From an uncultured Bacteroidales bacterium (GTDB lineage Bacteria; Bacteroidota; Bacteroidia; Bacteroidales; Paludibacteraceae), in the NCBI GenBank assembly GCA_902780235.1, contig CACZEL010000004.1, forward strand, positions 9,402 to 73,401: 64,000 bases of DNA, given 5' to 3'. Of the stretch, positions 961 to 64,000 are shown piece after piece. Positions within the stretch are counted from its first letter, which is position 1. Each line of letters starts with the position of its first letter. Position numbers and translations under genes: made by a program. The notes under the pieces were generated by a model. It did no database searches and was not told where the DNA came from. It worked only from the letters and a program-made list of their open reading frames with translations.

Positions 961-1002
961 GATTAGAGATTTTCGATTAGAGATTTTCGATTAGAGATTT
1001 TT
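961..1002. repeat. Tandem repeat block
   Basis: GATTAGAGATTTTC x3, direct. Confidence 0.9.
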
Positions 1003-1151
1003 ACGACAACAGGGAAAGAGGGTTTTGGAAAATGTTGAATATGAAATGGATAGATTGGGTTTTGCTGTTGCAGGGGACAAAAAGGCCAATAAGGGGATAT
1101 ACGAAAAGAGTTTGGAGGGGCGCTTATATTTGCAGTAGATTTCGATTTTTC

Positions 1152-1201
1152 CGAGATCACGAAATAACGAGATCACGAGATAACGAGATCACGAGATCAC
1201 G
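1152..1201. repeat. Tandem repeat block
   Basis: CGAGATCACGA(A/G)ATAA x2, then CGAGATCAC x2. Lies just upstream of ATG 1233. Confidence 0.9.
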
Positions 1202-1232
1202 AAAAATTTTTAACCAATTAAATTTTATCATT

Positions 1233-2480
1233 ATGCTTAAAAACCTTAATTCGATGGAGGGACAGGAAGACCTCCGCATCGTCGAGCATCTCGACATGCA
1301 AAAACTCCCTGAGAGTGTACAACAGATGATCTCGCTGGCTTCGACGCCCGAAGAGCAGGACATTATCCTGATGGCTACGCTTGCGGCGGCGAGCGCGTGC
1401 GTACCGAATCTGTATTTTAATTATGGTCCGACGGGCAAGAAGTACTACGCGAACCTGCAATGTTTCATCTTGGCGGCTGCGGCTTCCGGTAAGGGTATCG
1501 CGAACCAAGCATTAGAGATGGTACGCGTGATCGACGAGCAGTATCCGATGCTGATTGCGGGCGACAGCACCTTAGCGGCATGGTATAAAGCGCTGGAGGA
1601 GCAGGGCGGTGTCGGATACATGCATGAGAGCGAAGGAAGCGTGATCACCGACATCTGGCGCACGGCGGCGGCGAACTACAACACAGCGCTCCGTAAGGCT
1701 GCCGAGCACGAGGCGATCAGCCGTAACCGCGTCAAGGGAGCTTCGGAGATCAAGAACCCGCGCCTCTCTATGCTCCTTACAGGTACATTCGGTCAGTACA
1801 AAGCCTTGGTGCCAAGTGTGGAGAACGGATATTTCAGCCGTCTGCTGACGGTCGTTATCCGCGGCTCGAACGGCTTTGACAAGCGATATGTCTCGTCCAA
1901 AGGCGGACAGAGCGCGATCCCGAAGATAGTTGGACAGCGGCTCTTGCGGACATACGAAACCTTAATGAACGCAGGCGAGCGCGAATGGAGCCTCACAGAT
2001 GCGCAGAAAGAGCGGCTGGGTGAACACCTGGAGACGGAGTACGAGACGCTCATCGGGCTGCTCGGCGATAATTTCCATTCGGCGGTGATACGAATGGCGG
2101 TACAGATTGAACGGATCGCGATGATCTTAAGCGCCCTTAGATTAACGTCGTCTGTTGTGCCGGATGACATCCGGCTGGACTGTTCCGACGATGACTACGA
2201 AACCGCCGAAATCATCGGAAACCGTCTCCTCCTTCACATGGCTGCAGCCTATCGCCTCATCGACGGCGATGCCCAAGACCTCGTTCCCGACATCAAACCC
2301 CTCGACCAACGCCGTGTTCTCTTCGACCAACTCAAAACCGAATACGCCCATAAAGAACTGGTTGCAGAAGCCAAAGCACAGGGCATTTCTGCCAGAACAG
2401 CCTTTCGATGGAACGAAAAATGGCTTTGCGAAGGCCTCATTACAAAGGCAGAATACGGCGTATATCGAAAAGTAGGATGA
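1233..2480 (+). CDS. DUF3987-like P-loop protein (mobile-element replication/helicase-like)
   Basis: Track ORF 1032-2480 trimmed to ATG 1233, because the upstream part only reads through the repeat block. LASTPEEQDIILMATLAAASACVPNLYF...ILAAAASGKGIANQ resembles DUF3987 proteins of Bacteroidota integrative elements. The family call is from memory. Confidence 0.55.
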   Translation: MLKNLNSMEGQEDLRIVEHLDMQKLPESVQQMISLASTPEEQDIILMATLAAASACVPNLYFNYGPTGKKYYANLQCFILAAAASGKGIANQALEMVRVIDEQYPMLIAGDSTLAAWYKALEEQGGVGYMHESEGSVITDIWRTAAANYNTALRKAAEHEAISRNRVKGASEIKNPRLSMLLTGTFGQYKALVPSVENGYFSRLLTVVIRGSNGFDKRYVSSKGGQSAIPKIVGQRLLRTYETLMNAGEREWSLTDAQKERLGEHLETEYETLIGLLGDNFHSAVIRMAVQIERIAMILSALRLTSSVVPDDIRLDCSDDDYETAEIIGNRLLLHMAAAYRLIDGDAQDLVPDIKPLDQRRVLFDQLKTEYAHKELVAEAKAQGISARTAFRWNEKWLCEGLITKAEYGVYRKVG

Positions 2481-2560
2481 CAAAGTGACAAAGTGGCAAA
2501 GTCTAAACAATGCTAATGTGCTTATTTACAGTAACTTTGTCAACTTTGCCACTTTGCCAC
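2479..2560. repeat. Inverted tandem-repeat block (hairpin-capable)
   Basis: GACAAAGTGACAAAGTGGCAAAGT at 2479-2502 faces ACTTTGTCAACTTTGCCACTTTGCCAC at 2534-2560 across a loop of about 30 nt. It starts inside the stop codon. Confidence 0.85.
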
Positions 2561-2599
2561 TCAAATTCTTCTTTCATTAGGTCGGATGCCATCCGACGT

Positions 2600-2638
2600 C
2601 GGTCCCTTATCGGTCCCTTATCGGTCCGTTATCGGTCC
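2600..2638. repeat. Tandem repeat block
   Basis: CGGTCCCTTAT 11-mer, about 3.5 copies. Confidence 0.9.
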
Positions 2639-2726
2639 ATTTACGAGGTAATCCTAGACCATTGCCGGTATAATCGCGGTACCATCTTCCGACCATTACG
2701 GACATCCCAGTCCCCTAACTAAGATA

Positions 2727-2763
2727 TTCATTATTAATTATTCATTATTAATTATTAATTATC
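2727..2763. repeat. AT-rich tandem repeat block
   Basis: TTCATTATTAATTA x2 plus TTAATTA, ending 3 nt before ATG 2767. Confidence 0.8.
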
Positions 2764-2766
2764 ACT

Positions 2767-3201
2767 ATGGCTATTGCAAAATTAGCAAATGGAATCGATG
2801 AACTTCACGGCGCTATAGACAGCGTCAAAGAAGGCAAAAAAAGACGCGCACGTCTCGTATGTCGCTGGCGCCCACAAGGCCCGCAATCCTATGCACCTGA
2901 CGGCAGCAAGTTACACGAACTCTTTTATATGCGTTTCCCGGAAGGACCTCGTTCGGAAGGCTACCAACGCAACTTCAACATGATCTTAGCCGCGCAGCGG
3001 ATGGCGCATGATATCGAGCGGGTATGCTATCATCCGGAGGAGTTCGGCGAGGAAGATATTGCACAGGCGAAGATCTGGCAGGAGAAGTACGCGGAGTACT
3101 TGAAGACGATCCCAAAAGGTAGCAACTGCTACAAGCACTTCTACGGCTGGATGTTTACGGAGATTTATCTGGGGATGAGGAATGAAAGAATGAAGGAATG
3201 A
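2767..3201 (+). CDS. Hypothetical protein (144 aa)
   Basis: Clean ATG ORF with no family recognised. The last codons (..RNERMKE*) are encoded by the 8-mer repeat block. Confidence 0.4.
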   Translation: MAIAKLANGIDELHGAIDSVKEGKKRRARLVCRWRPQGPQSYAPDGSKLHELFYMRFPEGPRSEGYQRNFNMILAAQRMAHDIERVCYHPEEFGEEDIAQAKIWQEKYAEYLKTIPKGSNCYKHFYGWMFTEIYLGMRNERMKE

Positions 3202-3242
3202 AGGAGTGAAAGAATGAAGGAGTTAGGGATTAGGGATTAGGA
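3173..3242. repeat. Tandem repeat block between convergent genes
   Basis: AATGAA(A/G)G 8-mer x5, then ATTAGGG heptamer x3. It contains the stop codons of both flanking ORFs. Confidence 0.9.
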
Positions 3243-4396
3243 GTTTGAAAGCGGAAGAAACCCATAGCTTCGAGCGCTATGACTTCGTCTCGCACTTCCG
3301 GGGTATAGCGGCCATGATCTTTCATAGCGCGCTGGAATTGCGAGGCGTTGTTACGCTCCATGTAATTGATTTTGAGGTGTTCGCTGAGCCACTGGCGCAT
3401 GTCCTTGTCGGAGCATTTGCGGCGGATATAACCGAGTTGGCGCATGGCATAGACGGCGGCAGTGAGGTCGCGGAAATGGGCGGGATGCTGCTCGGCAAGT
3501 TGGAGATGATAGAGCAGATGCTCCTGCACATTCTCCGGCACATCATCTGACCAGAAACGAATGTCTTTCTTAGGCAAGAGACGATCGGTAAGGAAGGAAG
3601 TCCATTCTTTTTGCCATCGATTCCATTCTTTTTGTTCGGAAGGATTCAATTGGTTGATTTCATCAGAGAGAAAAGCCCAGTCGGTTTCTTGCGCGAAGAT
3701 GTATTTGCGATCGGCGGAAGTGATTTTCGCACCGGGGATTTCCTGCTTCATCGCCACATATTCATCGGAGAGCCAGTGAAGGTAGCGCTCCATGATATCG
3801 GCAGCTTTTTCGCCTTCGAAGAAGAAGGTCGGCGCCTCCGTCTCATCGGGCATATCGGCCATTTGGATCACAGCCGGGGCATCTGTCCAATCGGTCTGGA
3901 AGTAACGTTGGCGGCGCGTCTCCACACGGGCGGCATCAATAAGCCACTGGGGGAAAGGCGTTTTCCAAGGCATGACGTCCCATATGTGTTCGCGGAAGGT
4001 GACAAGGACCAAATGCTGCATGTACGCGACGGTAAGGCTTATTGCCAGATAGAGCAGACGGTTGTTGGGGCAAAGGTCATTGAGCGAAGTCGAACCGAGG
4101 GTGAACTGGACGTAGTTATCGCGTAGTTGGTTGACTTCAGCGGAGAGATAACCCCAATCGTCTCGGCGCACCTCTTTCTCATAGCGCGCGAAGAACTCCG
4201 CCTGTTCGGCATCGGTATCGAGGGCTATTTGGCGGGCATCGCCTTCGTCAGTATCGACGATGAGGGCCGCAAAGATAGATGCCGCGAGAAAACCGCGCAA
4301 CTCGATGGTCGCGCCGTCCTCCGGCGTATAGATGAGGGTATGGTTCTCATAACGCGTATGCGTATCGATGATATAGTTGTCTAAGAGTTTAGGCAT
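3230..4396 (-). CDS. Hypothetical protein (388 aa), downstream of the XRE regulator
   Basis: Long ATG-initiated ORF, acidic and Trp-rich, with no motif I recognise. The antisense ORFs in the track are shorter and compositionally odd. Confidence 0.5.
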   Translation of the reverse strand: MPKLLDNYIIDTHTRYENHTLIYTPEDGATIELRGFLAASIFAALIVDTDEGDARQIALDTDAEQAEFFARYEKEVRRDDWGYLSAEVNQLRDNYVQFTLGSTSLNDLCPNNRLLYLAISLTVAYMQHLVLVTFREHIWDVMPWKTPFPQWLIDAARVETRRQRYFQTDWTDAPAVIQMADMPDETEAPTFFFEGEKAADIMERYLHWLSDEYVAMKQEIPGAKITSADRKYIFAQETDWAFLSDEINQLNPSEQKEWNRWQKEWTSFLTDRLLPKKDIRFWSDDVPENVQEHLLYHLQLAEQHPAHFRDLTAAVYAMRQLGYIRRKCSDKDMRQWLSEHLKINYMERNNASQFQRAMKDHGRYTPEVRDEVIALEAMGFFRFQTPNP

Positions 4397-4493
4397 CTTT
4401 ATAATTCTGCTCTAACTATATTCAACTGTTTTTGTATCGGCTGTTTCATCCAATCGGGAATAGAATCTCCGACATAGTCGCCAAATCGCGAAA

Positions 4494-4820
4494 CTAACTA
4501 CGTCGTGGGCGAATACGTTTTGGTACTTTCCCTAGCAACTTGGCAATAAGCAGCGGACTAATCACCGCTTGGGTCTCAAAGTTATTAAGAATCTCCAATT
4601 TATTGAGCACACGCAGCATCGCTACGACGGACTCCATCTTCATTCCTTTCCCATTCTCCACCTGCGTGACTGTCGAACGGGATACACCTGCACGTTCCGC
4701 CAACTGCTGCTGACTCAATCGCGCGTTGATCCGCATCTGCCGCATCTGGTTGCCCACATACTGCAGCAGCGCCTCATTGGTCATAAAATAGTCTATCATA
4801 ATGATTGTTTTTTCATGCAT
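4494..4820 (-). CDS. XRE/Cro-C1 family helix-turn-helix transcriptional regulator
   Basis: LSQQQLAERAGVSRSTVTQVENGKG is a canonical HTH_3 motif. Confidence 0.75.
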   Translation of the reverse strand: MHEKTIIMIDYFMTNEALLQYVGNQMRQMRINARLSQQQLAERAGVSRSTVTQVENGKGMKMESVVAMLRVLNKLEILNNFETQAVISPLLIAKLLGKVPKRIRPRRS

Positions 4821-4870
4821 TAAATGCAGTTTTTATACTTAATGATTGTTATTCCAATCAAAATCCGCCG

Positions 4871-4902
4871 CAAAAGTACTGCTTTTTTTTGATATATGCA
4901 AG
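4871..4902 (-). promoter_or_regulatory. Promoter for the XRE gene
   Basis: The minus strand reads CTTG-N20-TACTTTTG. Confidence 0.65.
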
Positions 4903-4918
4903 AAAATTCGTGGAATTT

Positions 4919-4952
4919 TCAGTTGAAAGTTGAAAGTTTAGAGTTTAGAGGT
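4919..4952. repeat. Tandem repeat block
   Basis: AGTTGAA heptamers followed by AGTTTAG heptamers. Confidence 0.85.
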
Positions 4953-4953
4953 A

Positions 4954-4984
4954 TAAAAATCGCCTCAGGGGAAGCGATTTTTAT
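4954..4984 (-). terminator. Hairpin plus T-run after the ATPase gene
   Basis: AAAATCGC-loop-GCGATTTT with flanking A/T runs. Confidence 0.45.
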
Positions 4985-5030
4985 CGATTAGGGATTAGTG
5001 ATTTTCGATTAGGGAATTAGGGAGTTAGTG
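4985..5030. repeat. Tandem repeat block
   Basis: CGATTAGGGATTAG / GATTAGGGAATTAGGGAGTTAG (GATTAGG family). Overlaps the stop of the ATPase gene. Confidence 0.85.
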
Positions 5031-6158
5031 TTGTTTCAACCAAAGCGCAAAGAACTTCTCATATACCACATATGCGCCATCATCGTTTTGATAGAGTAGC
5101 TCCTTCTCCATCAGATTCTGTATTGCACTGCGAACTGTGCTATACGCTCCGAGTTGGTGCTTTTGAAGGAACACATTACTACCCGGCTCTTTGACGCCCC
5201 CTTCTTTCGCTACAGCTCGCAGCACTTGCAGTTGGCGATCGGTGATAAGACGAGAAATCATCTGATAAGAAGGCGCTTCCTCAAGCAAGATCTGGTTGAG
5301 GGTCATCAGTACCCTATTATAATCGATCTGCTCCACTCCGCTCTGATAGAGGCGGTTCAGCAGACTCTGAATATTCCATGTATAACCATCCACAAGCGTG
5401 TATAGGTCATGGAACGTATCTGCGGACATGTGTTGACCATGCGCGGACAGATGTTTAGCGGCAAAAGCATAATATACTTTCTCGTCAATCACATTGATAT
5501 GCATCATCTGCGTACTGCGGTAGAAAGGACGCTTAGCGGAAGAGAACATCTCGGCCATGATGTGTTTCTTGCTGCCAGAGAAAATAAAATGCACATTACG
5601 CAACTGCTGGATATAGGTGCGCAATAAAGCCTCCATCTTCACATCCGTATATTCCGCTATTGTCTGAAACTCATCAAAAGCCACATAGCAAGGGGTAACC
5701 GATTTCTCCAAGTATGCAAAGATCTGCTGCAAAGTCCATTCTTCGCGTTGGGGCTGAATATCTATGGTACATTGCGGCATGCCGCTAATAGGGTCAGCCC
5801 CGAAGACCGGACGTAGGGCACCAAAGAAATGGGTGATCTCCGACCATACCTGTTCAGAAAAGGGTGTGATACGTTTGGTCAATACTTCTTGCGCAAAGAG
5901 TTTAGTGAACTCTTGTAGATTAGAGGTGCTATAGAGATCCACATAAAAACACTGCACCTCCTTCGGATTCAGACTCCGAAAGAAATGCTGAATCAATCCC
6001 GTTTTTCCTACACGACGGGGACTGCTCAGCGTCACATTGCGGCCATTGACCAGCGCTCCAGCCAGCTCTTTAGTCTCCTCATCACGATCACAGAAATACT
6101 CCGGCCCCATGTAGGAGGTAATAGAAAACGGATTAAAAACGGTCTCTCTATTTGCCAT
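5025..6158 (-). CDS. AAA+ ATPase of the archaeal-ATPase/DUF234 type
   Basis: FCDRDEE...NVTLSSPRRVGKTGLI (Walker A), ..VAFDEFQ (Walker B-like) and a winged-helix-like C-terminus. ATG 6158 is preferred over the TTG 6164 used by the track. Confidence 0.75.
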   Translation of the reverse strand: MANRETVFNPFSITSYMGPEYFCDRDEETKELAGALVNGRNVTLSSPRRVGKTGLIQHFFRSLNPKEVQCFYVDLYSTSNLQEFTKLFAQEVLTKRITPFSEQVWSEITHFFGALRPVFGADPISGMPQCTIDIQPQREEWTLQQIFAYLEKSVTPCYVAFDEFQTIAEYTDVKMEALLRTYIQQLRNVHFIFSGSKKHIMAEMFSSAKRPFYRSTQMMHINVIDEKVYYAFAAKHLSAHGQHMSADTFHDLYTLVDGYTWNIQSLLNRLYQSGVEQIDYNRVLMTLNQILLEEAPSYQMISRLITDRQLQVLRAVAKEGGVKEPGSNVFLQKHQLGAYSTVRSAIQNLMEKELLYQNDDGAYVVYEKFFALWLKQH

Positions 6159-6231
6159 AATCAACTGATTTTATGCATTATAGTCGTAGCGAAATTTTCG
6201 TCACACTTTTTTCGTCACATAAATTTCGCTG

Positions 6232-6263
6232 CAAAAGTACTACATTTTTTTGATATATGCAAG
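6232..6263 (-). promoter_or_regulatory. Promoter for the ATPase gene
   Basis: The minus strand reads CTTG-N20-TACTTTTG. About 30 nt are nearly identical to the XRE promoter. Confidence 0.65.
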
Positions 6264-6270
6264 TGTTCGT

Positions 6271-6311
6271 AAAAAAAAATCGCACATACGCTTGAACGTA
6301 CATGCGATTTT
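6271..6311 (-). terminator. Rho-independent terminator after the giant gene and the small ORF
   Basis: The minus strand reads AATCGCATGTACG-TTCAAG-CGTATGTGCGATT followed by T9. Confidence 0.7.
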
Positions 6312-6315
6312 CGAT

Positions 6316-6471
6316 TTAAAAGACCGGTGTGCGGTGACGACCGGGAGCTCCCGGATGGGGAGGTACCGGTGTAGGATCCGGAGTAGAAGCCGGACTGCTA
6401 TCCAACAAGCACTTACTCAAATTGATTGTCTCCACCTCCATAAGGGGAGCTGTATATATTTTCTTTTCCAT
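6316..6471 (-). CDS. Candidate small ORF (51 aa) with a proline-rich tail
   Basis: Below the track cutoff. My translation is MEKKIYTAPLMEVETINLSKCLLDSSPASTPDPTPVPPHPGAPGRHRTPVF*. It starts 12 nt after the giant gene's stop, follows AAGGAG, and sits directly upstream of the terminator. Confidence 0.3.
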   Translation of the reverse strand: MEKKIYTAPLMEVETINLSKCLLDSSPASTPDPTPVPPHPGAPGRHRTPVF

Positions 6472-6483
6472 AATTCATTCTCC

Positions 6484-9400
6484 TTATTTTACGAGTTGAC
6501 CATCGATAGAATAAACCTTATCACCACGGATAATGAAGACTTGATTGTCGATCAGTACCTTCTTCGTCTCACCTTGAGCATCAACAACTGCTTCATCCAT
6601 ACCGGTAGTAGTTTGCGGCGCGTTCTTCACGCTAATACGCAGACCATAGTTCGCATCGGTGCCTTTCTGGAGTTCAGCCGTGTAAGCGTCCTCAGAGAGG
6701 TTCCAAATAGCTTCTCCGTTATAGGTCAGATAGAGGGTATGATCCTCAGAAGCTTTCTCCTTTTCGATAGCAATCGAGTACTCACCGGCCCTCGGAGCGA
6801 AGATGCTCAGCGGGAACTCAGCTACGCTGTTGACCGGAGCCATCGTATTCATACAGAGTTTCGCATCATAGCGATTTACCCACATCTGTGCCACCTTATC
6901 GCTTACACCAAATTTCAGCACATCCTGACCTATGGTATAGGTATCTGCCTCTTTGTCTTCATTCGCGTTGATGAAGAGACGATCCTGCATTCTACCATAG
7001 GAAGCAATCTCTACCTGATATTCTGCGTTCAAAGTCTGAGCGGCTTCATTGCGGCGAGCCGGAGCAGGAGCAGGAGGTGTGGTAACAGCCGTTGCTGATC
7101 CGTTATTCGTAGCTTGTACGAAGATCGGTTTCGCTACAATCAGTTTGTTGCTCAATGCAACCGCCTCGTAACTCTGTGCATCGGCATTGAATACTTGACC
7201 TACCGTAGCACCGGTATTGCTCAAGTAAGCATAGAAGATAGCCGGGTTGGCGATACCATTCCAGTTAGCGTCGGCTGGTGCTGCTGAATTAAATGCAGCA
7301 ACGCCGGTAGATGTATTCAAGATCGGAGCACCTGCTTTCTTCGGGAAGCGGAGTACCGATGCGTCGTTCGCCAGATAGAGCATGTAGAGACGACCCGGAA
7401 CGAGTACATCACTATTCGACAGATACTTCCAGCAAGCGTCCACCTTACCTTGTGCTGCACGAACCGATCCGTCGTAGTAAGCAAGGTAGTTACCGCTATT
7501 CCAAGAGAGCGGAGAACCATTTGCTGTAATCATACCAGCCGTTACCTGCCAAGGCACTGCCACAGCATACCACTTGCCGGCCGTGAATGTACCCGTGAGG
7601 TCATAGTAGCAATCACCTGTCACATTGAGCAGGTTTACACCTGTCAACTGACCGGATACTGTACCATTGGAGTTCAAAATCAATTGATTCACTGTAGTAG
7701 CCTCAACAATGTTCTGTGCCTGACCCAAGCCAACCTCCATGACAACCTCTTGAGCAGCAAAGTGCGCATAGTAAGATACGCTAGCGGTTGCTTTCGGTGT
7801 CATGTTGTTCTTATAGAACATACCGGCACCATTAGCCTCTGTGGTCCAACCGTCGAAGGTATATACATATTGAGTCGAAGCGGGTTTAGTCGGTATCTCA
7901 CCCGTGTAGATAGTAGCGGTATTCGCTTTCTGACCAACCTCAGCCAATATGGTATTTCCGTCGAAGCTCTTCCAAGTGATGGTATAATCAGGATTTGCTA
8001 CAGTAAAGTTAGCTACTAGGTTAATGTCAGCAGTAATCGTTGCAGGAAGGTCACTTACCGTATTGCCATCTTTATCAGTCCAATTGGTAAAGGTATAACC
8101 ATCGTTGTCCGATCGTGAGATAGAGATAGCTGTACCATAATCAAATGTACCTGCTCCCGAGAATGTACATGCGCCGGAAGGATTCGCCTTGAGCGTAACG
8201 GTGTATTTATTCGTAGTAGCGTCAAATACGGCAGTATAATTAGCATCTGCCATTACCGTTTGGATCTGCGGGGTCCATCTGAGTGCATAGGTGTATTGCG
8301 CTGTTGCTGCCTTAGTCGGAAGTTCCGAGCAAACAGGTGTCTCACCGTATTGATACTGATGACTCTCGATGACATCTGCAGGAGTATTCGGATCACCATT
8401 CTCTTTTACGAACTTAACCGTATATGTCTTTGCTACTTCTGCATAAATAGCGGTGTACGACTTGATGCTGGTAGCAGAAACTTCTTCCAATGCCGGTGAC
8501 CAATGGTCGAAGACATAGGTAAACTCACTTGTAGCCGGTTTGCTATTCGGCGTGGCTTCAGTATATTCCGGCATTGCACCTACAGCTACATTACCTTGCT
8601 GCAGTACCGTAGTACCATTATAGTCATAGAACGTCACCTGATACTCCGTAGGCGGATTCTCAAGCCATGAAGCGGTATATGTTGCATCGCCTGTTACAGC
8701 AGCAATAGCCGGAGTCCATTGGAGTGTGTGACCAACCTTTGTCGGCACATTTTCGCAAACAGGAATCTCATTGTGCGTCAAGAAATGACGCTCAATCTCC
8801 GTACCACCTTCATTTTGGAAGATGATGGTGTACATACGCGGCTTCTCCGTATAAGTGGCCGTATAGGTTACATTGCTCGTCACAGGACCGAGAGCAGGAG
8901 CCCAACCGGTGAAATCATAGGTATAGTCGATGTTTGCTTCACGGGTCGGGTTAGTACCGAGGAATTCAGCCATCGTACCATATTTAACATAGTACTCGTC
9001 AACAAGCGCACCATTGAACGCAGCTGTTTGGATTATGTCGCCATTCCAGTTCTTCCATGAAACCGAGAACATCTGTTCCCTCCACATCTCGAAGTCATCA
9101 TCCCAATAATAATACGTGTCATTATCCGGATGGATACAATGGTAGAGGTTATCTTTCTTCTCTACTTCCCACCACTGATCACAAATACCTAAATTGGTAG
9201 TCAATATAAAGAGTCGACCGGCACCGGCTGCATCGCTGTAGGTATGGTCACTATTACCAACCATCTTTTCTCCATCCCAGGTAGCATTGATGGCTACATA
9301 CTCTTGTGGTTTAGCATAATACGTATCATAATCATCCTTCATGAAGCAGTTATCTTCTGCTACTTCGAAAATATTCCATACATTATCCGTATAGCAGTAT

Positions 9401-12924: not shown

Positions 12925-13068
12925 ATCTTTTGTTTTTTATGTTAGTTTCTTATCTCGATTCTCTCGAACGATTATTGCTTAATCCAATCTTCTTATTTCG
13001 TTGCAATCAAACGATTATTGCTATTTGCTTGTCGGTCAAAAATTACCAACAATGATCCAAAAAATTTC

Positions 13069-13678: not shown

Positions 13679-13828
13679 TATATTTTTGCGCTCTCGTGCG
13701 CACGGATGTAAGCGGCGCGTATAAAAGCGTCGCAAAGTTACTGCTTTTTTGCGACATACACAAGAGTTTTACGATAAAAATGCAAAAATATATGCTTTTT
13801 GTAAACAAGAGATAGCAAAATCGTAAGA
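13679..13828. repeat. About 150-nt promoter-leader module, copy 2
   Basis: See 809-957. This copy has about 55 extra nt between the module and the ATG, including CTGTTCAATCTGTCTAATCTGTGG. Confidence 0.85.
13733..13764 (-). promoter_or_regulatory. Promoter for the TA operon
   Basis: The minus strand reads CTTG-N20-TAACTTTG, identical to the box at 862-893. Confidence 0.65.
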
Positions 13829-51885: not shown

Positions 51886-51898
51886 TTACTAATTCACT

Positions 51899-51927
51899 TT
51901 GGCTATTAGCCATTAGCTGTTAGCTTT
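51899..51927. repeat. Junction block
   Basis: TTGGCTATTAGCCATTAGCTGTTAGCTTT encodes the FabF-like C-terminus ..KLTANG* and its stop. Confidence 0.9.
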
Positions 51928-53135: not shown

Positions 53136-53165
53136 CTTTCAACTTTCACCTTTCAACTTTCAATT
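53128..53165. repeat. Junction block
   Basis: CTTTTCACCTTTCAACTTTCACCTTTCAACTTTCAATT. Confidence 0.9.
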
Positions 53166-53913: not shown

Positions 53914-53916
53914 TTA
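53889..53916. repeat. Junction block
   Basis: TATTTACCATTTTGTCATTTACCATTTA is translated as MVNDKMVN. Confidence 0.9.
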
Positions 53917-55440: not shown

Positions 55441-56930
55441 CGTTTATAGTTTTCCCACTTCGTATTACGCATGTCGCCGCTCTTGAGGAACTCCTCATGC
55501 ATAGCGAAGGCGCAACTTAACTCATGTTGTGTCTGACCGTGACGTGCGATCTTGAGGTAGTCCCGCAGCATCTCGCGATACTCAGGTGCTACACAGTTAT
55601 TGATGATCTCTTCAGCGCGCTGACGCGGACTCTTACCACGCAGATCGGCTACACCCTGTTCGGTCACCAGCACCTTCACGCTGTGCTCACTATGGTCGAG
55701 GTGCGTCACCATCGGTACGATGGACGAGATAGCGCCGTTCTTCGCCGTCGAAGCGGTGGTGAAGATAGACAGGTACGAGTTACGGGCGAAATCACCCGAA
55801 CCGCCGATACCGTTCATCATCTTCGTACCGCAAACATGCGTCGAGTTGACGTTGCCGTAGATGTCTGCTTCGAGCGCCGTGTTGATGGCGATGATACCCA
55901 AACGACGGGCGATCTCCGGACTGTTGGACGTCTCTTGCGGACGAAGCAACAACTTGTCACGATAGAAATCAAGGTCAGCCAGTACTTCTGCCATCTTGCT
56001 CTCTACCAGACGGAGAGAGCATCCGCTCGCGAACTTACAATGTCCGGCTTTGATGAGATCCACCACGCTATCCTGGATCACCTCCGAGTACATCTCAAAG
56101 GGCGGGATATTGGGGTTCTTGCCCAGTTCGCCAAGGACCGCATTCGCTACGTTTCCTACACCCGATTGGATCGGCAAGAAGGAAGCCGGGATACGTCCCG
56201 CTTTCATCTCTGCCTCCAGGAAAGCCGCTACGTTGGCGCCGATCTTAGCCGTCGTCTCATCTACCGGCGTGAAAGCCGGGATCTCATTTGGACGGTTGGT
56301 CTTCACCACCGCTGCGATCTTCGCCGGATCCACTTTGATATGGTCCGAACCGCAACGATCCGATGGCTTATAGATCGGGATCTCGCGACGGCAAGGAGGA
56401 TCAAGCGGCTCATACAAGTCATGCATGCCACGCATCGAAGCGGGGAACATCTCGTTTAACTCGATGATGATCTTATCCGCCAAACGACAGATGGTCGGCA
56501 TGATACCTACACCGGCAGCCGGAACGATCGTTCCGTCTTCCCCTACATACGATGCCTCGATGATCGCCCAGTTGGGCTTCGGAAGGAATCCGTAACGCAG
56601 GTCCTGCGGCATATGACTCAGGTGGCCGTCGAAATAGTGCGTTCCTTCGGCATTGATCTCGTCACGCATCGACTTGTTCGATTGGTACGGCGTACGGAAC
56701 TCGACCGCGTGAGCGCGTGCTAACGCACCGTCACAACTGTCACCCATCGACGCACCGGTCTCCAGACCTACACGGAAAGGAATACCCTGCTCGTGCAGAC
56801 GCTCTGCGCGTTGTGCCAAAGCAAACGGCACTGCCTTGGGCACTCCGGTAGCAGTAAAACCACCGAGACCCAAGACATCACCATGTTGTATTAATTCGGC
56901 AGCTTGCTCTGCCGACATGTATTTTAACAT
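55437..56930 (-). CDS. Acetyl-CoA hydrolase/transferase family protein (succinate/acetate CoA-transferase-like)
   Basis: ..GDVLGLGGFTATGVPKA.., ..IAINTALEADIYGNVNS.., ..GIGGSGDF.. . Start set to MLKYMSAEQ, because the track's N-terminus reads through a repeat. Confidence 0.85.
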   Translation of the reverse strand: MLKYMSAEQAAELIQHGDVLGLGGFTATGVPKAVPFALAQRAERLHEQGIPFRVGLETGASMGDSCDGALARAHAVEFRTPYQSNKSMRDEINAEGTHYFDGHLSHMPQDLRYGFLPKPNWAIIEASYVGEDGTIVPAAGVGIMPTICRLADKIIIELNEMFPASMRGMHDLYEPLDPPCRREIPIYKPSDRCGSDHIKVDPAKIAAVVKTNRPNEIPAFTPVDETTAKIGANVAAFLEAEMKAGRIPASFLPIQSGVGNVANAVLGELGKNPNIPPFEMYSEVIQDSVVDLIKAGHCKFASGCSLRLVESKMAEVLADLDFYRDKLLLRPQETSNSPEIARRLGIIAINTALEADIYGNVNSTHVCGTKMMNGIGGSGDFARNSYLSIFTTASTAKNGAISSIVPMVTHLDHSEHSVKVLVTEQGVADLRGKSPRQRAEEIINNCVAPEYREMLRDYLKIARHGQTQHELSCAFAMHEEFLKSGDMRNTKWENYKR

Positions 56931-56931
56931 T

Positions 56932-56975
56932 TTCTTATTTTCGCATTTTTTCATTTTCTCATTTTCTCATTTAAG
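56932..56975. repeat. Left flank block of four-helix-bundle gene B
   Basis: ..CGCATTTTTTCATTTTCTCATTTTCTCATTTAAG. The inner 14 nt, CATTTTCTCATTTA (56960-56973), are a perfect inverted match to 57356-57369. Confidence 0.9.
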
Positions 56976-57353
56976 CTATGACGCTTGAGAAGGAATGATA
57001 TCTCGCTTTATTTTGAACGTACTAATAGATTTAGTAGTTATTTTACACAACTCTAAACATTCGTCATAAAGCGGCTGCACTCTGGATTTTGGAAGCATCT
57101 CTGTTTCCATAATGATATCTAACCAATGTGCTGTTTCATCTATTTCCTCTTCCACTATCTTTAACTTATTCACAAAATCTTTTTCAGATTTAGCTAAACA
57201 AGCAGCTCTATAATTAGCAGCAGGGGACGTTCCTGAACGAACTATTTGACGCGCAATTGCCCAAGCCGATATGGTATTAGGCATAGCATCTACCATTCTA
57301 ATAATCCTTATAGAAAAGGCACGGAAACGTTCTTTTAATTCATCTTCCTGCAT
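56976..57353 (-). CDS. Four-helix-bundle protein, 23S rRNA-IVS / Avd family (copy B)
   Basis: ..IARQIVRSGTSPAANYRAACLAKSEKDFVNKLKIVEEEIDETAHWL.. . Confidence 0.85.
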   Translation of the reverse strand: MQEDELKERFRAFSIRIIRMVDAMPNTISAWAIARQIVRSGTSPAANYRAACLAKSEKDFVNKLKIVEEEIDETAHWLDIIMETEMLPKSRVQPLYDECLELCKITTKSISTFKIKRDIIPSQAS

Positions 57354-57394
57354 ACTAAATGAGAAAATGCGAAAATGAGTAAATGAATAAATGA
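57354..57394. repeat. Right flank block of gene B (inverted)
   Basis: ACTAAATGAGAAAATGCGAAAATGAGTAAATGAATAAATGA. Confidence 0.9.
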
Positions 57395-58414: not shown

Positions 58415-58528
58415 ATGTTTGATGTTGTTTGATATTGTTTGACATTGTTTGACATTGTTTGATGTCGTTTGAGGTTGTTTGATCTTGTTAACGATCTCAA
58501 ACCTTCAAACTATCTCAAACCTTCAAAC
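58415..58528. repeat. Empty polarity-switching block (GTTTGA then TCAAAC)
   Basis: (N4)GTTTGA 10-mers x7, a switch at TTGTTAACGATC, then CTCAAACCTTCAAAC.. . The 28-nt core at 58486-58513 is identical to 63473-63500. Confidence 0.9.
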
Positions 58529-59603
58529 GACTTGCGTAGTGTCCACGAATCAGCACATGATGGTTGTGGATCGGGTTGGTCAGGAAATACTGACTCACTT
58601 CGGGTGTAGCCTTGATCCAAACCTGCGTACGGCAGAGGTTGGGCTCGAACTGACAACGCTCGAGTTCCACATCCACTGCTAACAAACGCTGCATGTCGCC
58701 GCTCATCTTGAGAAGCGTGTAGTCGCCTGTCGGCAGATCGCCGTGGATCGCTACACCGATACCCGACTCGAAATGCGTGGTGTACTCATGCTTCTCGGTC
58801 ATACCCAAGGGCAGCGTACAGTGCGCGAACAGCATCTCGCCGTCGGCTTGGATACGTGCCGGATTGACTTGGAAGCATAACTCACCCGTCAGACGCTTGG
58901 CGATCATCATCGTCAGCAGGGTCGGTATATCGCCTTCGCATGCTGCCGGAATACCTTCGTCATTGAGTTTGCTGAGCGCGATACAACCCGTGTTCTTAAC
59001 CGTGGTCAACAGGTCAAAACAACGCAGTGTCACGCCCTGCAGATCATATTGCTCCACAAGTTCTTTGAGACGCGCGTAGATAGCCTCAGCACCTTTCATG
59101 CCCGGATCCACCTCGCCCAATTTCGTCATCTCTTCGATCGCGATGTCCACCAATTCGATGTTCATCCGCTTCAGCACCTCGGTATAATTGACGCCCGATG
59201 AAATCAACCAATCGGACGGTTTACCGACAACGCCCAGACGCAGCGGTTGGTCGCTATGCAGCAATTTCTCCGAAGGCTGAATACTGACTACTGACGGCTG
59301 ATCACTGATCGCCAGATCGGTATCCTCCGCGTTCATCATCACTTTGCCGACCCCCTGATGCTGACGAACATAACTCAGGATCTCCAGCGAAGCGGCCAAG
59401 GAGTTACTATGCCCGCTGACCATCAGATAAACCGGTTGGCTCAGGTCAATCAACCCGTCTTCCACCAACTGAACGAACTTAGCCTCCGTTCCGCCGGTCA
59501 GAATAGCCACTACCTGATGGTCATTCAGAAACGCCTGCGGCAATTCAAACGGCACCGTCAGCGTCTCTTTATGCATCTCCGATGATAAAATATGCAAGAT
59601 CAT
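58515..59603 (-). CDS. L-arabinose/L-fucose isomerase-superfamily-like protein, paralog 1
   Basis: ..ACEGDIPTLL.. and C-terminal ..NHHVLIRGH.. resemble the AraA/FucI catalytic-domain layout. Substrate unknown. Confidence 0.5.
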   Translation of the reverse strand: MILHILSSEMHKETLTVPFELPQAFLNDHQVVAILTGGTEAKFVQLVEDGLIDLSQPVYLMVSGHSNSLAASLEILSYVRQHQGVGKVMMNAEDTDLAISDQPSVVSIQPSEKLLHSDQPLRLGVVGKPSDWLISSGVNYTEVLKRMNIELVDIAIEEMTKLGEVDPGMKGAEAIYARLKELVEQYDLQGVTLRCFDLLTTVKNTGCIALSKLNDEGIPAACEGDIPTLLTMMIAKRLTGELCFQVNPARIQADGEMLFAHCTLPLGMTEKHEYTTHFESGIGVAIHGDLPTGDYTLLKMSGDMQRLLAVDVELERCQFEPNLCRTQVWIKATPEVSQYFLTNPIHNHHVLIRGHYASRLKV

Positions 59604-60854: not shown

Positions 60855-61832
60855 ATGAAAAAGAATCTTTTCGTTCGTCTTATCACATGGCTCGCCATCA
60901 TGGCGGTGCTGACCTTGATAGCGATGGGGGCTTGGATGCTCCTTAGCGGGAACAGTCAGAGTACAGTCAGTCTCAAATGGCTGCAGTTCGTTCAGACGGT
61001 TGCTACTTTTTTAATCCCGCCTGTGCTCTGCGCTTGGCTGTGGGACGCCGATCGACGTCCCTTCGCGTGGCTTAAGATGGACAAGCGCGTCGATGGGTCG
61101 CTCTTTGCTTTGGCGGTCGTCCTCATGGTCTGCGCCGTACCGGCTATCAACCTCTTGGCGGATCTCAACAGCCGTATCACGCTGCCGGAGAGCATGGCGG
61201 CATGGGAGGCGAAGATGAAATCGATGGAAGCCGCAGCGGCAGCGCTCACCGAACGCTTCCTGCAAGTCGATAATCTCGGCGGACTCATCATCAACCTCGG
61301 TCTGATGGCCCTCCTTCCCGCCCTCTCCGAAGAACTCTCCTTCCGCGGCACCCTGCAGCAGCTAATAGCCAATAGCCAAGAGCTAAGAGCCAATAGCCAA
61401 CAGCTAAGAGCCAATAGCCAACAGTTAAGAGCCAAGAGCCAAGAGCTAATAGCCAATAGCCAACAGCTAATAGCCAATAGCCATATGGCTATATGGATCA
61501 CTGCTATTATATTTTCAGCGATACATATGCAATTTTACGGTTTCATCCCGCGTATGCTCATGGGCGCGATGTTCGGCTATGTCTTCGTCTGGACGGGTAG
61601 CCTGTGGGTGCCGATCGTCATGCATTTCACCAACAACGCACTCGCGGTTGTGGTTTACTACATAACAGCCAATAGCCAAGAGCTAATAGCCAATAGCCAA
61701 CAGCTAACAGCCAATAACCAAAATATCGCCGACACGATAGGTGCCGGCGATACATGGTGGTTAGGCGTCATCAGCCTGATCCTTACATCTCTGGGTCTAC
61801 TAATATTCTACCGCAGAACTCACAAGGAATAA
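60855..61832 (+). CDS. CPBP (CAAX/Abi) family intramembrane glutamic endopeptidase
   Basis: Motif 1 SEELSFRG, motif 2 FSAIH, motif 3 HFTNN. Two long repeat insertions lie in loops. Confidence 0.8.
   Translation: MKKNLFVRLITWLAIMAVLTLIAMGAWMLLSGNSQSTVSLKWLQFVQTVATFLIPPVLCAWLWDADRRPFAWLKMDKRVDGSLFALAVVLMVCAVPAINLLADLNSRITLPESMAAWEAKMKSMEAAAAALTERFLQVDNLGGLIINLGLMALLPALSEELSFRGTLQQLIANSQELRANSQQLRANSQQLRAKSQELIANSQQLIANSHMAIWITAIIFSAIHMQFYGFIPRMLMGAMFGYVFVWTGSLWVPIVMHFTNNALAVVVYYITANSQELIANSQQLTANNQNIADTIGAGDTWWLGVISLILTSLGLLIFYRRTHKE
61358..61496. repeat. In-frame 21-nt-period block between CPBP motifs 1 and 2
   Basis: Encodes IANSQELRANSQQLRANSQQLRAKSQELIANSQQLIANSH. Each 21-mer is three degenerate CCAATAG-type heptamers with the TAG removed. 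Confidence 0.95.
61664..61721. repeat. In-frame 21-nt-period block after CPBP motif 3
   Basis: Encodes ITANSQELIANSQQLTANNQN. Confidence 0.95.
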
Positions 61833-62517: not shown

Positions 62518-62530
62518 ACTATAATAGTTT

Positions 62531-62660
62531 TTTGTTTGACATTGTTGGATGTTGTTTGAGGTTGTTTGAGATCGTTTGAGATTGTTTGAGATTGTTTGAG
62601 ATCGTTTAAACCTTCAAACCTTCAAACTTCAAACTACCTCAAACCCTCAAACTTCAAACC
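62531..62660. repeat. Empty polarity-switching block (GTTTGA then TCAAAC)
   Basis: TTTGTTTGACATTGTTGGATGTTGTTTGAGGTTGTTTGAGATCGTTTGAG... switches at about 62607 to AAACCTTCAAACCTTCAAACTTCAAAC... . It contains the nif3 stop. Confidence 0.9.
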
Positions 62661-63409
62661 AAAATGGGACTTTTGTCCCTCTCACTAATGATGCATTTTA
62701 CGCCAAGGGGTTCGATCAGGTCGCGGAAGATCTCCCGTGCATGTCGCTCGCTGTACCAATGGTCGATATCGATGAGTCCGATGCGCCGGTCGGCGTCCTG
62801 AAACTCATGGTACTTGCAGTCTGCTGTCAGATACACATCCGCCCCTTGCTCGATAGCGGTATCGATAAACTCAGCCCCGCTTCCGCCACAAACGGCTACG
62901 GTCCGGATCAACTCCTTCGCCGGACGGGTATAACGGACGTACGAGCAGTCGAGCGTCTTGCGGATTTGTTCGATGAAATCGAGATAATTGACCGGTTCCG
63001 GCAGGCTACCTATCGCCCCTAAACCGCTCTCGGTCAATAATCGATAATCCCTAATCCCTAATCGTTCCGCCAGCCTCGTGTTGATCCCTCCAACCACCGA
63101 GTCAAGGTTCGTATGCGCAGAATAGATAGCGATATCATGCTTGATCGCCATCTCTACGACACGTGCCTGCGGCGTCTGACCGCAGACCTGCTTCAAACCG
63201 TGAAACAACAAAGGATGATGGGAGATAATGAGTTGACATCCATATTCAATAGCTTCACTGACCACATCTTCCGTGATGTCTGTGGTCAGGAGGACAGACG
63301 TAATGTCTCGTCCCGTGTCACCTACCTGCATTCCCGAGTTATCCCAACTCTCCTGGGCACTCCGTGGCGCTACAGATTCTATGCTATTGATAATGGCTCT
63401 TAAGAGCAC
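62654..63409 (-). CDS. Nif3-like dinuclear metal-centre protein (GTP cyclohydrolase I type 2 family)
   Basis: ..AQESWDNSGMQVG.., ..ISHHPLLF.., ..YSAHTNLD.., ..DHW.SE. . GTG start. Confidence 0.9.
   Translation of the reverse strand: MLLRAIINSIESVAPRSAQESWDNSGMQVGDTGRDITSVLLTTDITEDVVSEAIEYGCQLIISHHPLLFHGLKQVCGQTPQARVVEMAIKHDIAIYSAHTNLDSVVGGINTRLAERLGIRDYRLLTESGLGAIGSLPEPVNYLDFIEQIRKTLDCSYVRYTRPAKELIRTVAVCGGSGAEFIDTAIEQGADVYLTADCKYHEFQDADRRIGLIDIDHWYSERHAREIFRDLIEPLGVKCIISERDKSPILV
63036..63064. repeat. In-frame heptamer block in nif3
   Basis: AATAATCGATAATCCCTAATCCCTAATCG (complement of GATTAGG) encodes ..GIRDYRLLT.. . Confidence 0.85.
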
Positions 63410-63416
63410 TTAGTCT

Positions 63417-63541
63417 ACTGTTTGATATCGTTTGATATTGTTTGATGCTGCGCGTTTGATGTTGTTTGACGTTGTTAACGATCTCAAACCTTCAAACTAC
63501 CTCAAACAATCTCAAACTTCAAACTTTCAAACCCTCAAACC
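63417..63541. repeat. Polarity-switching block left of four-helix-bundle gene C
   Basis: GTTTGAT units, the TTGTTAACGATC switch, then CTCAAAC units running into the stop of gene C. Confidence 0.9.
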
Positions 63542-63927
63542 TTTTTAAACTTATTTCCAGTTATCTCTGCTTGTTTGAGATACTTTATCATATTAAATAT
63601 TTTTGACCCGATAGTTTTGGAGTCCTGAATTAAGGCTTTGCATTTGTCGTCTAATATATAACCCGCATCCAATGCTCTATATAATTGACTTCGCACCTCA
63701 CCACAAGAACCTTTTGAGACATACAAGAATTGTATAAATTCTTTTGTTCCCTCTCTCTCAAAACCTTCCGCAATATTGTCCATTATTGACCCCGCCGCAG
63801 CTCTTATTTGAGAGCAGAAACGTGTATCGCTTCTAAAATCTCGTGTTCTGGTAATTTGGTAGATTTCCTTACTAAAGGTACGAGCTAATTGCCATATTTC
63901 CAAATCTTCGAAATTACTAATAGTCAT
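63535..63927 (-). CDS. Four-helix-bundle protein, 23S rRNA-IVS / Avd family (copy C)
   Basis: ..LEIWQLARTFSKEIY..FCSQIRAAAGSIMDNIAEGFEREGTKEFIQFLYVSKGSCGEVRSQL.. . Confidence 0.85.
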   Translation of the reverse strand: MTISNFEDLEIWQLARTFSKEIYQITRTRDFRSDTRFCSQIRAAAGSIMDNIAEGFEREGTKEFIQFLYVSKGSCGEVRSQLYRALDAGYILDDKCKALIQDSKTIGSKIFNMIKYLKQAEITGNKFKKV

Positions 63928-64000
63928 ACCTCAAACCCTCAAACTTCAAACTATCTCAAACCTCAAACTTCAAACTATCTCAAACTACCTCAAACTATCT
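63928..64000. repeat. TCAAAC-family block right of gene C, running off the window
   Basis: ACCTCAAACCCTCAAACTTCAAACTATCTCAAACCTCAAACTTCAAACTATCTCAAAC... . Confidence 0.9.

Follow-up and report, generated by a model that had tools for sequence, protein, structure and literature searches.

Heptanucleotide tandem arrays at gene junctions of a rumen Paludibacteraceae genome and their likely relation to PF05635 gene cassettes

The window, i.e. the whole stretch of DNA analysed here, is a 64-kb stretch of the metagenome-assembled genome (MAG) of a rumen bacterium of the family Paludibacteraceae. It carries the hup, adk and obg genes, a CLC gene, tRNA-Met, a gene cluster resembling those of pigment biosynthesis and three genes of the PF05635/TIGR02436 family. 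Tandem arrays of short units lie at many of the gene junctions. Arrays were called by Tandem Repeats Finder (TRF) with overlapping rows merged, and the gene map was built from codon statistics, Pfam matches and gene calls on related contigs. The positions are collected in Table 1. Our reading, which we hold to be probable though well short of certain, is that these are hypervariable arrays of the short tandemly repeated repetitive (STRR) type with units of 7–10 nt, mostly heptanucleotides, and that some pairs of them are the arms of gene-in-hairpin cassettes enclosing a PF05635 gene.

The 116 TRF rows of the window merge into 72 arrays of 2746 bp in total. Order-3 Markov shuffles of the window, which give the chance level, contain 3–17 arrays (typically 7–8) and 76–350 bp. 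Array density is 43 bp/kb as compared to 3.6 bp/kb (seven arrays) in a 50-kb control from Escherichia coli K-12. The tandem-repeat blocks of the original prediction are thus real, and all the examples quoted there hold arrays, including 29029–29058, which can be seen by eye in the sequence although it stays under the TRF score threshold. The blocks had been placed at almost every gene junction. Enrichment at junctions is clear: non-coding DNA makes up 8.2% of the window and holds 1377 of the 2746 array bases, and arrays occupy 26% of non-coding bases versus 2.3% of coding bases. Junctions touched by arrays number 30 out of 55, and among the 36 spacers with a length of 20 nt or more, approximately 29–30 (about 80%) have one. 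Since the 19 overlapping or abutting gene pairs are array-free, except for the pair meeting at 53913/53914, "almost every junction" has to be narrowed to most junctions with any spacer. Stop codons are indeed frequently supplied by the arrays (18 out of 54), start codons less often (3–4). A few unit families recur, as had been noticed; at least six of them are found across the window at unlinked loci. The in-frame arrays inside genes and the array-enclosed PF05635 genes had been overlooked. There are 31 arrays within open reading frames (ORFs), many of them of the junction unit families.

Related genomes have similar arrays. A search of species-representative genomes with the window Obg protein gave 78 rumen and gut MAGs, classed as Paludibacteraceae or as uncultured Bacteroidales; the top match has 99% protein identity, which places the window in a rumen Paludibacteraceae genome. 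Array density is 5–56 bp/kb in nearly all of the 80 obg loci compared, and unit sequences differ between species. The outgroup Parabacteroides sp. PF5-6 (L080; L-numbers such as L090 or L104 are labels of the compared contigs and loci) has inverted heptamer pairs at 5921–6018 and 9086–9170 and an array density of 32 bp/kb, which means that the phenomenon reaches beyond Paludibacteraceae. Period 7 is the commonest in the window, in the 80 obg loci and in the flanks of PF05635 genes.

Within the species the arrays turn over fast, by presence or absence, by whole-unit changes and by replacement of one unit family with another. The conspecific set consists of 19 contigs from other assemblies, recovered by exact matches to HU and an acyl carrier protein. 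Their aligned blocks are typically 95.5–98% identical to the window, and the alignments break exactly at arrays. The length polymorphism between strains that the original prediction had proposed to look for is present, as conspecific junction alleles vary in presence, size and family. Specifically, the hup/adk spacer is array-free and 20 nt long in four strains, and elsewhere it is a quasi-palindrome of 101, 129 or 143 nt; the 101-nt allele is shorter by 21 nt in each arm and the 129-nt allele by 14 nt in one arm. The adk/obg junction has an array-free allele of 23 nt (L088) and alleles of 73 or 90 nt, the latter apparently with one extra unit per arm, and its array substitutes the final two residues of adenylate kinase. 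Between obg and CLC there are five alleles of four unrelated types (one type in two lengths). The window allele, with an array on each side of a PF05635 gene, is 465 nt long; the motif GTTAAGATGGT of one allele of other strains is found in the window at 37171–37181, in the same spacer as the 37190–37210 array. At the tRNA-Met flank four strains have an unrelated array-free sequence of 158–159 nt instead of the window array, and at the 22752 junction the array is replaced by an unrelated 75-nt allele in other strains. Strain L098 is missing 24 nt of the CATTTTCA array at 49244–49272, and strains differ by 5 nt and 39 nt at 53130–53163. An obligatory role of the arrays is not supported, as individual arrays are absent in conspecific strains.

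The junction between the aldolase and acetyl-CoA hydrolase genes shows a replacement as well. In the window it holds a PF05635 gene between CATTTNC and GAAAATG arrays. In L090 and L093 a 120-nt hairpin of the form (GTTTGA..)n GTTAAC (..TCAAAC)n replaces the PF05635 gene, and L092 has the same hairpin. With two copies in the window and the aldolase-junction copy of L090–L093, the GTTAAC-centred hairpin occupies three loci in the species, and it is found at two loci of another species (L015), where the copies are near-identical within one genome. The hairpin at 62532 is related to these. An irregular unit, TCAAACGCGAAGCA, is common to the L090–L093 and L015 copies, and its variant TCAAACGCGCAGCA is found in the window copy at 63474. 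In a comparison of filled with empty alleles the entire spacer turned out to be replaced, as opposed to a simple insertion. Family replacement at one junction together with shared irregular units means that slippage from a local seed is insufficient as an explanation. Through the arrays, strains of a single rumen species come to differ in their gene ends and protein loops, and the arrays are a source of strain markers.

Two small repeats were noticed near these junctions. The 3' part of tRNA-Met (TGTAGCGGGACCCAGGATTGAA...) is duplicated at 19405–19490, upstream of the intact gene, where it is interrupted by ATAATCGTGCCCTCGTGGCTAAG. The near-identical 24-mer AATAATCGTGCCCTTTAGGGCTAAG is part of the 39-nt insertion of L092 and L093 within the junction array at 53143. 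ATAATCGTGCCCTCGTGGCTAAG and AATAATCGTGCCCTTTAGGGCTAAG may represent a second small dispersed element or the remnant of an attachment site.

Arrays survive only where reading frames stay intact: in spacers, in gene tails and in permissive protein loops. In-gene arrays are read as repeats of seven residues, e.g. (ANSQxLx)n, with a super-period of 21 nt, and they avoid the unit variant that would yield TAG. The MMPL-family gene (38033–39955, minus strand) has five array regions with six arrays in total; its three GCTATTG-family arrays code for the peptides PIANSQE and LRANSQE. The CPBP/CAAX protease gene (60855–61832, plus strand) has two array regions, both within its Pfam domain. Among 24 orthologues of this protease two loop positions hold 0 to 42 residues (42 in the window, at 61359–61483), and the loops change by 7-residue steps and sometimes to a different repeat family. 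Internal arrays between 42.7 and 51.3 kb show no change among conspecific strains. Simple sequence repeats of contingency genes, which serve phase variation by switching a gene through unit-number changes in its promoter or 5' coding region, were considered as a model and rejected: most of the arrays are found in spacers or at 3' ends, and the in-gene changes come in frame-preserving 21-nt steps.

At gene ends the polarity of the arrays favours a prompt stop of translation. In 22 arrays at gene 3' ends the ORF extends into the array by a median of one codon (maximum six). The first 30 nt of these arrays have stops in all three frames in 15 out of 22 cases in the observed polarity versus 6 out of 22 when inverted. 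Compared with its inverse, the polarity seen has more stops in 13 cases, as many in 7 and fewer in 2 (sign test p ~0.007). In-gene arrays use the opposite, stop-free polarity. With a unit period that is not a multiple of three, any stop trinucleotide falls in every frame. The simplest reading is that the stop codons within arrays reflect where insertions can be tolerated, and in which polarity. On this reading the arrays do not have the purpose of supplying stop codons, C-terminal residues or leader sequences, which are by-products of this tolerance.

The arrays have consequences for annotation, since spurious extensions of ORFs arise from them and can lead gene callers astray. The long ORF 5' of HU at 14751–14867 is such an over-extension, the HU protein on record starting at 14868, and the start of the CLC gene is probably 17583, not 17559. 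In MAGs the arrays disrupt gene calling and synteny-based alignment as well.

In some bacterial genomes the presence of heptanucleotide arrays has awaited an explanation since 1990, when Mazel and colleagues are said to have named the class STRR, for short tandemly repeated repetitive heptanucleotides. The 1995 account of Anabaena by Jackman and Mulligan reportedly speaks of "highly variable but structured intergenic regions". The window has tandem units of about 7 nt beyond chance (72 arrays versus about eight), concentrated in intergenic DNA, in several families at unlinked loci, and variable in length and sequence between close relatives. As every testable feature of the STRR class is thus found here, the claim that the blocks belong to no known repeat class fails: the class has been seen in cyanobacteria, Xanthomonas, Beggiatoaceae and a few Bacteroidetes, and the window arrays are a Bacteroidales instance of it and not a new class. 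They also differ from CRISPR, which has repeats of 24–48 nt with unique spacers, in that units of 7–10 nt abut without spacers. What sets the window apart is a rumen Bacteroidales host, the high density in non-coding DNA, in-frame arrays in protein loops and the cassette-like replacement of junction alleles. According to Mrazek 2007, heptamers outnumber the other long simple-sequence repeats in many genomes. Three heptanucleotide families are reported from Calothrix. Xanthomonas genomes have 183–186 arrays of the GGGAATC type with 2–26 units, mostly intergenic, and 70–75 convergent inverted pairs per genome, with lengths varying between related species (Rehm 2015, PMC4692102). Intergenic location, convergent inverted pairs and length variation between species are all common to Xanthomonas and the window, and Xanthomonas also encodes a PF05635 protein; its units, however, are G-rich and quadruplex-capable, which the window units are not, and in the window many families coexist. 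TAACTGA arrays of Beggiatoaceae, cyanobacteria and five Bacteroidetes including Paludibacter (MacGregor 2015, PMC4679880) are likewise intergenic heptamers near start codons, occasionally within ORFs in stop-free orientation. They have one unit sequence, mostly 2–6 copies, and are almost all direct, whereas the window has many families and inverted pairs, mostly at gene 3' ends.

The part that is likely to be new concerns PF05635, a large family of unassigned function that Pfam names "23S rRNA intervening sequence protein". Three window ORFs belong to it with Pfam E-values of 1e-15 to 1e-35, and all of them are above the TIGR02436 cut-off. The three proteins are mutually 20–33% identical, have weak similarity to Avd, a protein of diversity-generating retroelements, and Xanthomonas XCC0516 (2GSC) is the nearest protein of solved structure. 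PADLOC matched none of them to a defence system. Arrays flank all three genes, with opposite polarity for genes 1 and 2 and with a hairpin beside gene 3; among the window arrays, only these three cases enclose such an ORF. Genes 1 and 2 are missing at their junctions in comparable conspecific contigs; at the junction of gene 1 the eight contigs that can be anchored have other alleles. A tblastn search of the 80 obg loci and of the conspecific loci recovered by HU found no PF05635 gene outside the window.

PF05635 genes sit between arrays, mostly inverted ones, in many unrelated bacteria. A metagenome scan seeded with the alignment of the three window proteins gave 80 loci with GC contents of 30–64%, of which 62 non-redundant ones were analysed. 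A TRF array lies within the 120 nt upstream of 68% of the PF05635 genes versus 31% of non-adjacent ORFs of the same loci, within the 120 nt downstream of 73% versus 36%, and in both flanks of 55% versus 19%. Ungapped inverted matches between the flanks with a score of at least 12 are found for 48% of PF05635 genes versus 8% of comparison ORFs, and with a score of at least 16 for 24% versus 4%. Array density is 266 bp/kb in the flanks, where 45 arrays of period 7 and 25 of period 8 predominate, versus 31 bp/kb in the rest of the loci, the latter being about nine times as high as in E. coli. The arms of some pairs mirror each other perfectly, with the unit variants in reverse order (for example 30 nt in L104); L141 has mirror-image arms as well. 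At 46 loci the upstream arm is the G-rich one and the downstream arm the C-rich one, versus 2 loci with the opposite order, as is predicted by the stop-codon filter; this polarity is identical when read on either strand. Inverted pairs in Paludibacteraceae loci, for which the detector overlooked pairs merged into one interval, are unbiased in order (GT-rich first versus AC-rich first, 6:5). PF05635 proteins that are 72–86% identical are accompanied by the same arm units in different contexts, the flanks of which have no tblastx similarity to each other, and distant arrays are of the same unit family as the PF05635 arms in 39% of comparisons within a locus versus 8% between loci.

Plasmids give the same picture. 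PF05635 homologues are present in 25 records among 72,556 plasmids. Nineteen of the 25 are cyanobacterial (Nostoc 10, Calothrix 3, one each from Anabaena, Aulosira, Pseudanabaena, Stanieria, Geminocystis and Picosynechococcus), and the others come from Riemerella (4), Azospirillum and Gemmatirosa. We inspected 14 copies, whose named hosts include Nostoc, Calothrix, Anabaena, Riemerella and Azospirillum: a heptamer array is present on at least one side in 13 and inverted arms are present in 10. For example, the arms are GGGAGTA x8 and TCCCTAC x5 in Nostoc edaphicum, where the gene lies between nrdB and nrdA, AGGGAAC and GTTCCCT in Nostoc C052, and GGTTCAA and TTGAACC in Riemerella.

Three array-flanked copies are neighbours of cas genes: between cas6 and cas4 in L186 (Pseudanabaena), next to cas4 in L191 (Anabaena sp. 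90), and between cas10 and cmr3 in L192 (Picosynechococcus). The family is said to turn up as "cas-associated" in association surveys. Cassettes among cas genes could explain this label, and they could mislead guilt-by-association surveys.

Intervening sequences of 23S rRNA that carry this ORF have a gene-in-hairpin architecture and are processed by RNase III. PF05635 genes 1 and 2 of the window and those of the 62 loci resemble them in that a PF05635 ("S23p") ORF is enclosed by complementary flanks able to form a long stem. They differ in lying between protein-coding genes (by blastn against the E. coli rrn operon, none of the 80 PF05635 loci is in an rRNA operon) and in having arms made of tandem 7–8-nt units. 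It is likely that the arrays are the arms of such a gene-in-hairpin cassette, and that hairpin arrays lacking an ORF represent it in miniature or empty form. The number of units would change by slipped-strand mispairing, and where both arms change in a matched way this would be due to templated repair within a quasi-palindrome. As many junctions have arrays of the same family, these would serve as portable homology, and recombination between them could place a gene in an empty hairpin and so make it a cassette, or exchange the alleles of a junction. In the transcript the arms could pair and, by analogy with the rRNA intervening sequences, become an RNase III substrate. A more tentative extension, for which we would not claim much, is that PF05635/TIGR02436 genes, as Avd homologues with inverted heptanucleotide arms, form a widespread and unrecognised class of junction-inserting cassettes, that the STRR-type arrays of cyanobacteria, Xanthomonas and Bacteroidota are arms or ORF-less derivatives of it, and that the protein recognises its own units or promotes their copying. 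In the literature searched, PF05635 figures only as an uncharacterised intervening sequence protein, an Avd relative, a strain-specific Arthrospira gene and an ORF in rRNA insertions of the candidate phyla radiation. No described link between PF05635 and heptamer repeats was found in a search that did not cover Elhai 2008 on small dispersed repeats. If the arrays and PF05635 belong together, each can be tested through the other.

Several observations weigh against the cassette interpretation. About 15% of PF05635 genes have an array on neither side. Other genes of the same contigs have arrays in 31–36% of their flanks, and with arrays so common at other junctions a PF05635 gene may simply lodge in pre-existing ones; moreover, the non-adjacent ORFs used as controls are unmatched for size or accessory status. 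A PF05635 gene is absent from all 80 Paludibacteraceae obg loci, though most of these loci are array-rich. In the window, the two arms of an ORF-less hairpin do not complement each other perfectly, the differences being systematic transitions. Neither a mobility enzyme nor a signature at the target site turned up, though no systematic search was made for either. Finally, folds of the antisense strand are as stable as those of the sense strand or more so.

The strongest competitor, in our opinion still rather unlikely, regards the arrays as plain microsatellites, a neutral by-product of slippage in a lineage prone to 7-nt steps, with PF05635 genes as unrelated small accessory genes in the same permissive junctions. 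Such an origin agrees with unit sequences that vary between species, with arrays that are dispensable in conspecific strains and also frequent in the flanks of other genes, and with array-rich obg loci that mostly have no PF05635 gene nearby; a polymerase footprint of 7 nt and slippage of the polymerase as an explanation are reported to have been proposed by Mrazek 2007. It leaves unexplained, however, how an unrelated family can take over a junction when slippage works from a local seed, why near-identical irregular units (TCAAACGCGAAGCA) occur at different loci and in different species, why the unit variants of mirror-image arms are reversed (L104, L141), and why inverted arms are in 6-fold excess around PF05635 genes.

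Many arrays do form pairs of opposite polarity (quasi-palindromes), as had been noticed. Blocks that switch polarity midway had been predicted to fold, and six that were folded have z-scores of −3.5 to −6.9 on both strands. Together with the position of arrays next to stop and start codons, the polarity bias at 3' ends and the translational regulation proposed for TAACTGA repeats (MacGregor 2015, PMC4679880), this might suggest selected RNA elements, i.e. intercistronic hairpins or protein-binding mRNA repeats that set processing, stability or translation of the neighbouring genes. We consider such a role improbable. The suggested hairpin of the sense transcript is not supported: antisense folding is as good or better, and in the GCTGTTA family the more stable fold is that of the strand antisense to hup, adk and obg (−50.9 versus −33.3 kcal/mol). 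Nor are the arrays intrinsic terminators with a GC-rich stem and a T run: a scan of the window found terminator-like sites at chance level and outside arrays, and the genuine hup terminator sits 5' of its array. A sigma-70 promoter scan of the window found no association with arrays, and an Rfam search at gathering thresholds found only two tRNAs and no family matching the arrays. Furthermore, presence or absence among strains at the housekeeping junctions hup/adk/obg, interchange of different families at one site and the same units in coding regions are all difficult to reconcile with a selected RNA function, and stop-codon content alone accounts for the polarity bias.

Elements like REP (repetitive extragenic palindrome) and REPIN (paired REP hairpin) sequences or MITEs (miniature transposable elements with inverted repeats), mobilised by a dedicated transposase elsewhere in the genome, are a very unlikely explanation. 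The window hairpins share with them and with bacterial interspersed mosaic elements (BIMEs) that they are short, dispersed, palindrome-forming, strain-variable and located between genes at gene ends. The (GTTTGA..)n GTTAAC (..TCAAAC)n architecture is conserved at dispersed loci, its L015 copies are nearly the same, and the arms of some cassettes (20–30 nt, inverted) resemble terminal inverted repeats. REP, BIME and REPIN sequences, however, have a fixed imperfect palindrome of 20–40 nt, and here the arms are tandem 7–10-nt units of variable copy number. There is no discrete length and there are no defined ends, the unit number being different in every copy, and whole-spacer replacement distinguishes filled from empty alleles, target-site duplications not having been searched systematically. 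No transposase, including the REP-associated tyrosine transposase, is encoded by the 10 of approximately 54 window ORFs that were Pfam-scanned or seen in neighbour annotations. Assembly artefacts, which could be suspected since the window comes from a MAG and short repeats are prone to misassembly and which had been named as what would refute the blocks, can be dismissed, as alleles are found again, down to the same irregular units, in independent assemblies (ENA and JGI) and samples and equivalent arrays are found in finished plasmid sequences of cultured strains.

Table 1. Arrays, PF05635 genes and promoter-like motif copies in the window
Feature	Position	Strand	Remark
GATTAGAGATTTTC x2.9 array	961–1001		5' of plus-strand gene starting at 1032/1233; called by TRF
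Inverted pair, TGACAAAG x3 then ACTTTGCC x3.4	2478–2561		stop codon 2480 in first arm
TCGGTCCCTTA x3.6 spacer array	2599–2638
TATTAAT x5.4 array	2725–2762		5 nt ahead of start codon 2767
GAATGAAA and TTAGGGA arrays	3180–3241		fill convergent junction; contain both stops (3201, 3230)
AGTTGAA/AGTTTAG array and GATTAGG x5.9 array	4921–5028		contain stop of minus-strand gene (5025)
hup/adk quasi-palindrome, left arm, TTAGCYG x8	15201–15255
hup/adk quasi-palindrome, right arm, AGCCAAT x9	15261–15322
adk/obg hairpin array	15897–15945		codes final 2 residues and stop of adk
PF05635 cassette 1, upstream arm, GCTGTTA	17133–17166
PF05635/TIGR02436 four-helix-bundle gene 1	17180–17545	+	Pfam match
PF05635 cassette 1, downstream arm, AGCTAAT	17533–17552		contains stop of gene 1
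GCTGTTA/GCCAATA hairpin array	19591–19652		adjoins tRNA-Met
AGTTGAA x2.6 array in PriA gene	22016–22033	−
ATTTATG array	22752–22783		contains stop of thymidine kinase gene
ACCTTTC x3.6 array	28216–28240		contains stop of CN-hydrolase gene
GCTGTTA-type junction block	29029–29058		seen by eye
AGTTGAA/AGGTGAA array	30519–30558		13 nt ahead of start codon 30571
16-nt-unit spacer array	34808–34844
GTTAAAA-type spacer array	37190–37210
MMPL gene, in-frame GCTATTG-family array	38522–38557	−
MMPL gene, in-frame GCTATTG-family array	38640–38703	−	TRF 38664–38703; start 38640 read from sequence
MMPL gene, in-frame GCTATTG-family array	38844–38874	−
MMPL gene, in-frame AGTTGAA array	39521–39550	−
MMPL gene, in-frame TGAAAGG and AGTGGAT arrays	39682–39757	−
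AGTTTTC array	40025–40054		contains stop codon 40051
GTTGGCT spacer array	42071–42097
In-frame ATTGATG array	42736–42783	−	unchanged in both conspecific contigs covering it (L090, L091)
TGAAAGT/TGAAAGG array	44647–44674		overlapping gene ends
CATCTCGA x5 array in ketosynthase gene	46191–46230	−
GCTGTTG x4.6 array in ketosynthase gene	46996–47027	−
GGTTTGAA x3.5 in-gene array	47759–47785	−
TGGCTCT x5.1 in-gene array	48010–48045	−
TCAAAC-family array	48227–48266		contains stop codon 48260
GGCTATT array in ketosynthase gene	48651–48684	−
ATTGGTG array in ketosynthase gene	49019–49050	−
CATTTTCA array	49244–49272		covers start 49246 and stop 49271
TTGGCTA array in methyltransferase gene	51310–51335	−
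GCTATTA array	51902–51925		contains stop codon 51906
TTTCACC/TTTCAAC array	53130–53163		fills a junction
ATTTACC array	53890–53916		covers abutting start and stop
PF05635 cassette 2, downstream arm (GAAAATG on minus strand)	56921–56972		contains start codon of next gene
PF05635/TIGR02436 gene 2	56976–57353	−	Pfam match
PF05635 cassette 2, upstream arm (CATTTNC on minus strand)	57357–57394
ORF-less hairpin (GTTTGA..)n GTTAAC (..TCAAAC)n	58416–58530		contains stop codon 58515
CPBP/CAAX protease gene, in-frame array of 21-nt period	61359–61483	+	encodes (ANSQxLx)n
CPBP/CAAX protease gene, second in-frame array	61663–61721	+	varies by 7-aa steps
ORF-less GTTTGA/TCAAAC hairpin	62532–62660		contains stop codon 62654
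GTTTGA..GTTAAC..TCAAAC hairpin 3' of PF05635 gene 3	63419–63543		contains stop codon 63535
PF05635/TIGR02436 gene 3	63535–63927	−	Pfam match
GTTTGA-family array 5' of PF05635 gene 3	63929–64000		continues past window end
GCAAAAGTACTGCTTTTTT motif copies	861–879, 4870–4888, 6231–6249, 13732–13750, 14672–14690, 19681–19699	+
GCAAAAGTACTGCTTTTTT motif copy	32922–32940	−

Other features of the window were noticed in addition. The 19-nt motif GCAAAAGTACTGCTTTTTT is present in seven copies versus 0.01 expected, and every copy is oriented towards a downstream gene or tRNA. Its reverse complement includes TAnnTTTG, the −7 element of Bacteroidetes promoters, and the motif looks like an extended, unusually conserved promoter.

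The minus-strand gene at 6484–12924 codes for a 2147-aa protein with Flg_new_2 repeats that is strongly divergent between conspecific strains: its length is 2078 to 2518 aa across strains, and the DNA is just 73–90% identical in alignable parts. Region 1–13400, with DUF3987, HTH and PemK genes and in some strains HipA in the same place, is likewise strain-variable.

The cluster at 38033–56954 (minus strand) resembles those for aryl-polyene or flexirubin-type pigment biosynthesis. It comprises the MMPL transporter, an AMP-ligase, an ApeI-like dehydratase, a LolA-like protein, several ketosynthases, two acyl carrier proteins, an ApeP-like thioesterase, a lipid A acyltransferase, an O-methyltransferase, a ketoreductase and an aromatic ammonia-lyase. 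Several enzymes of this cluster have in-frame heptamer arrays.

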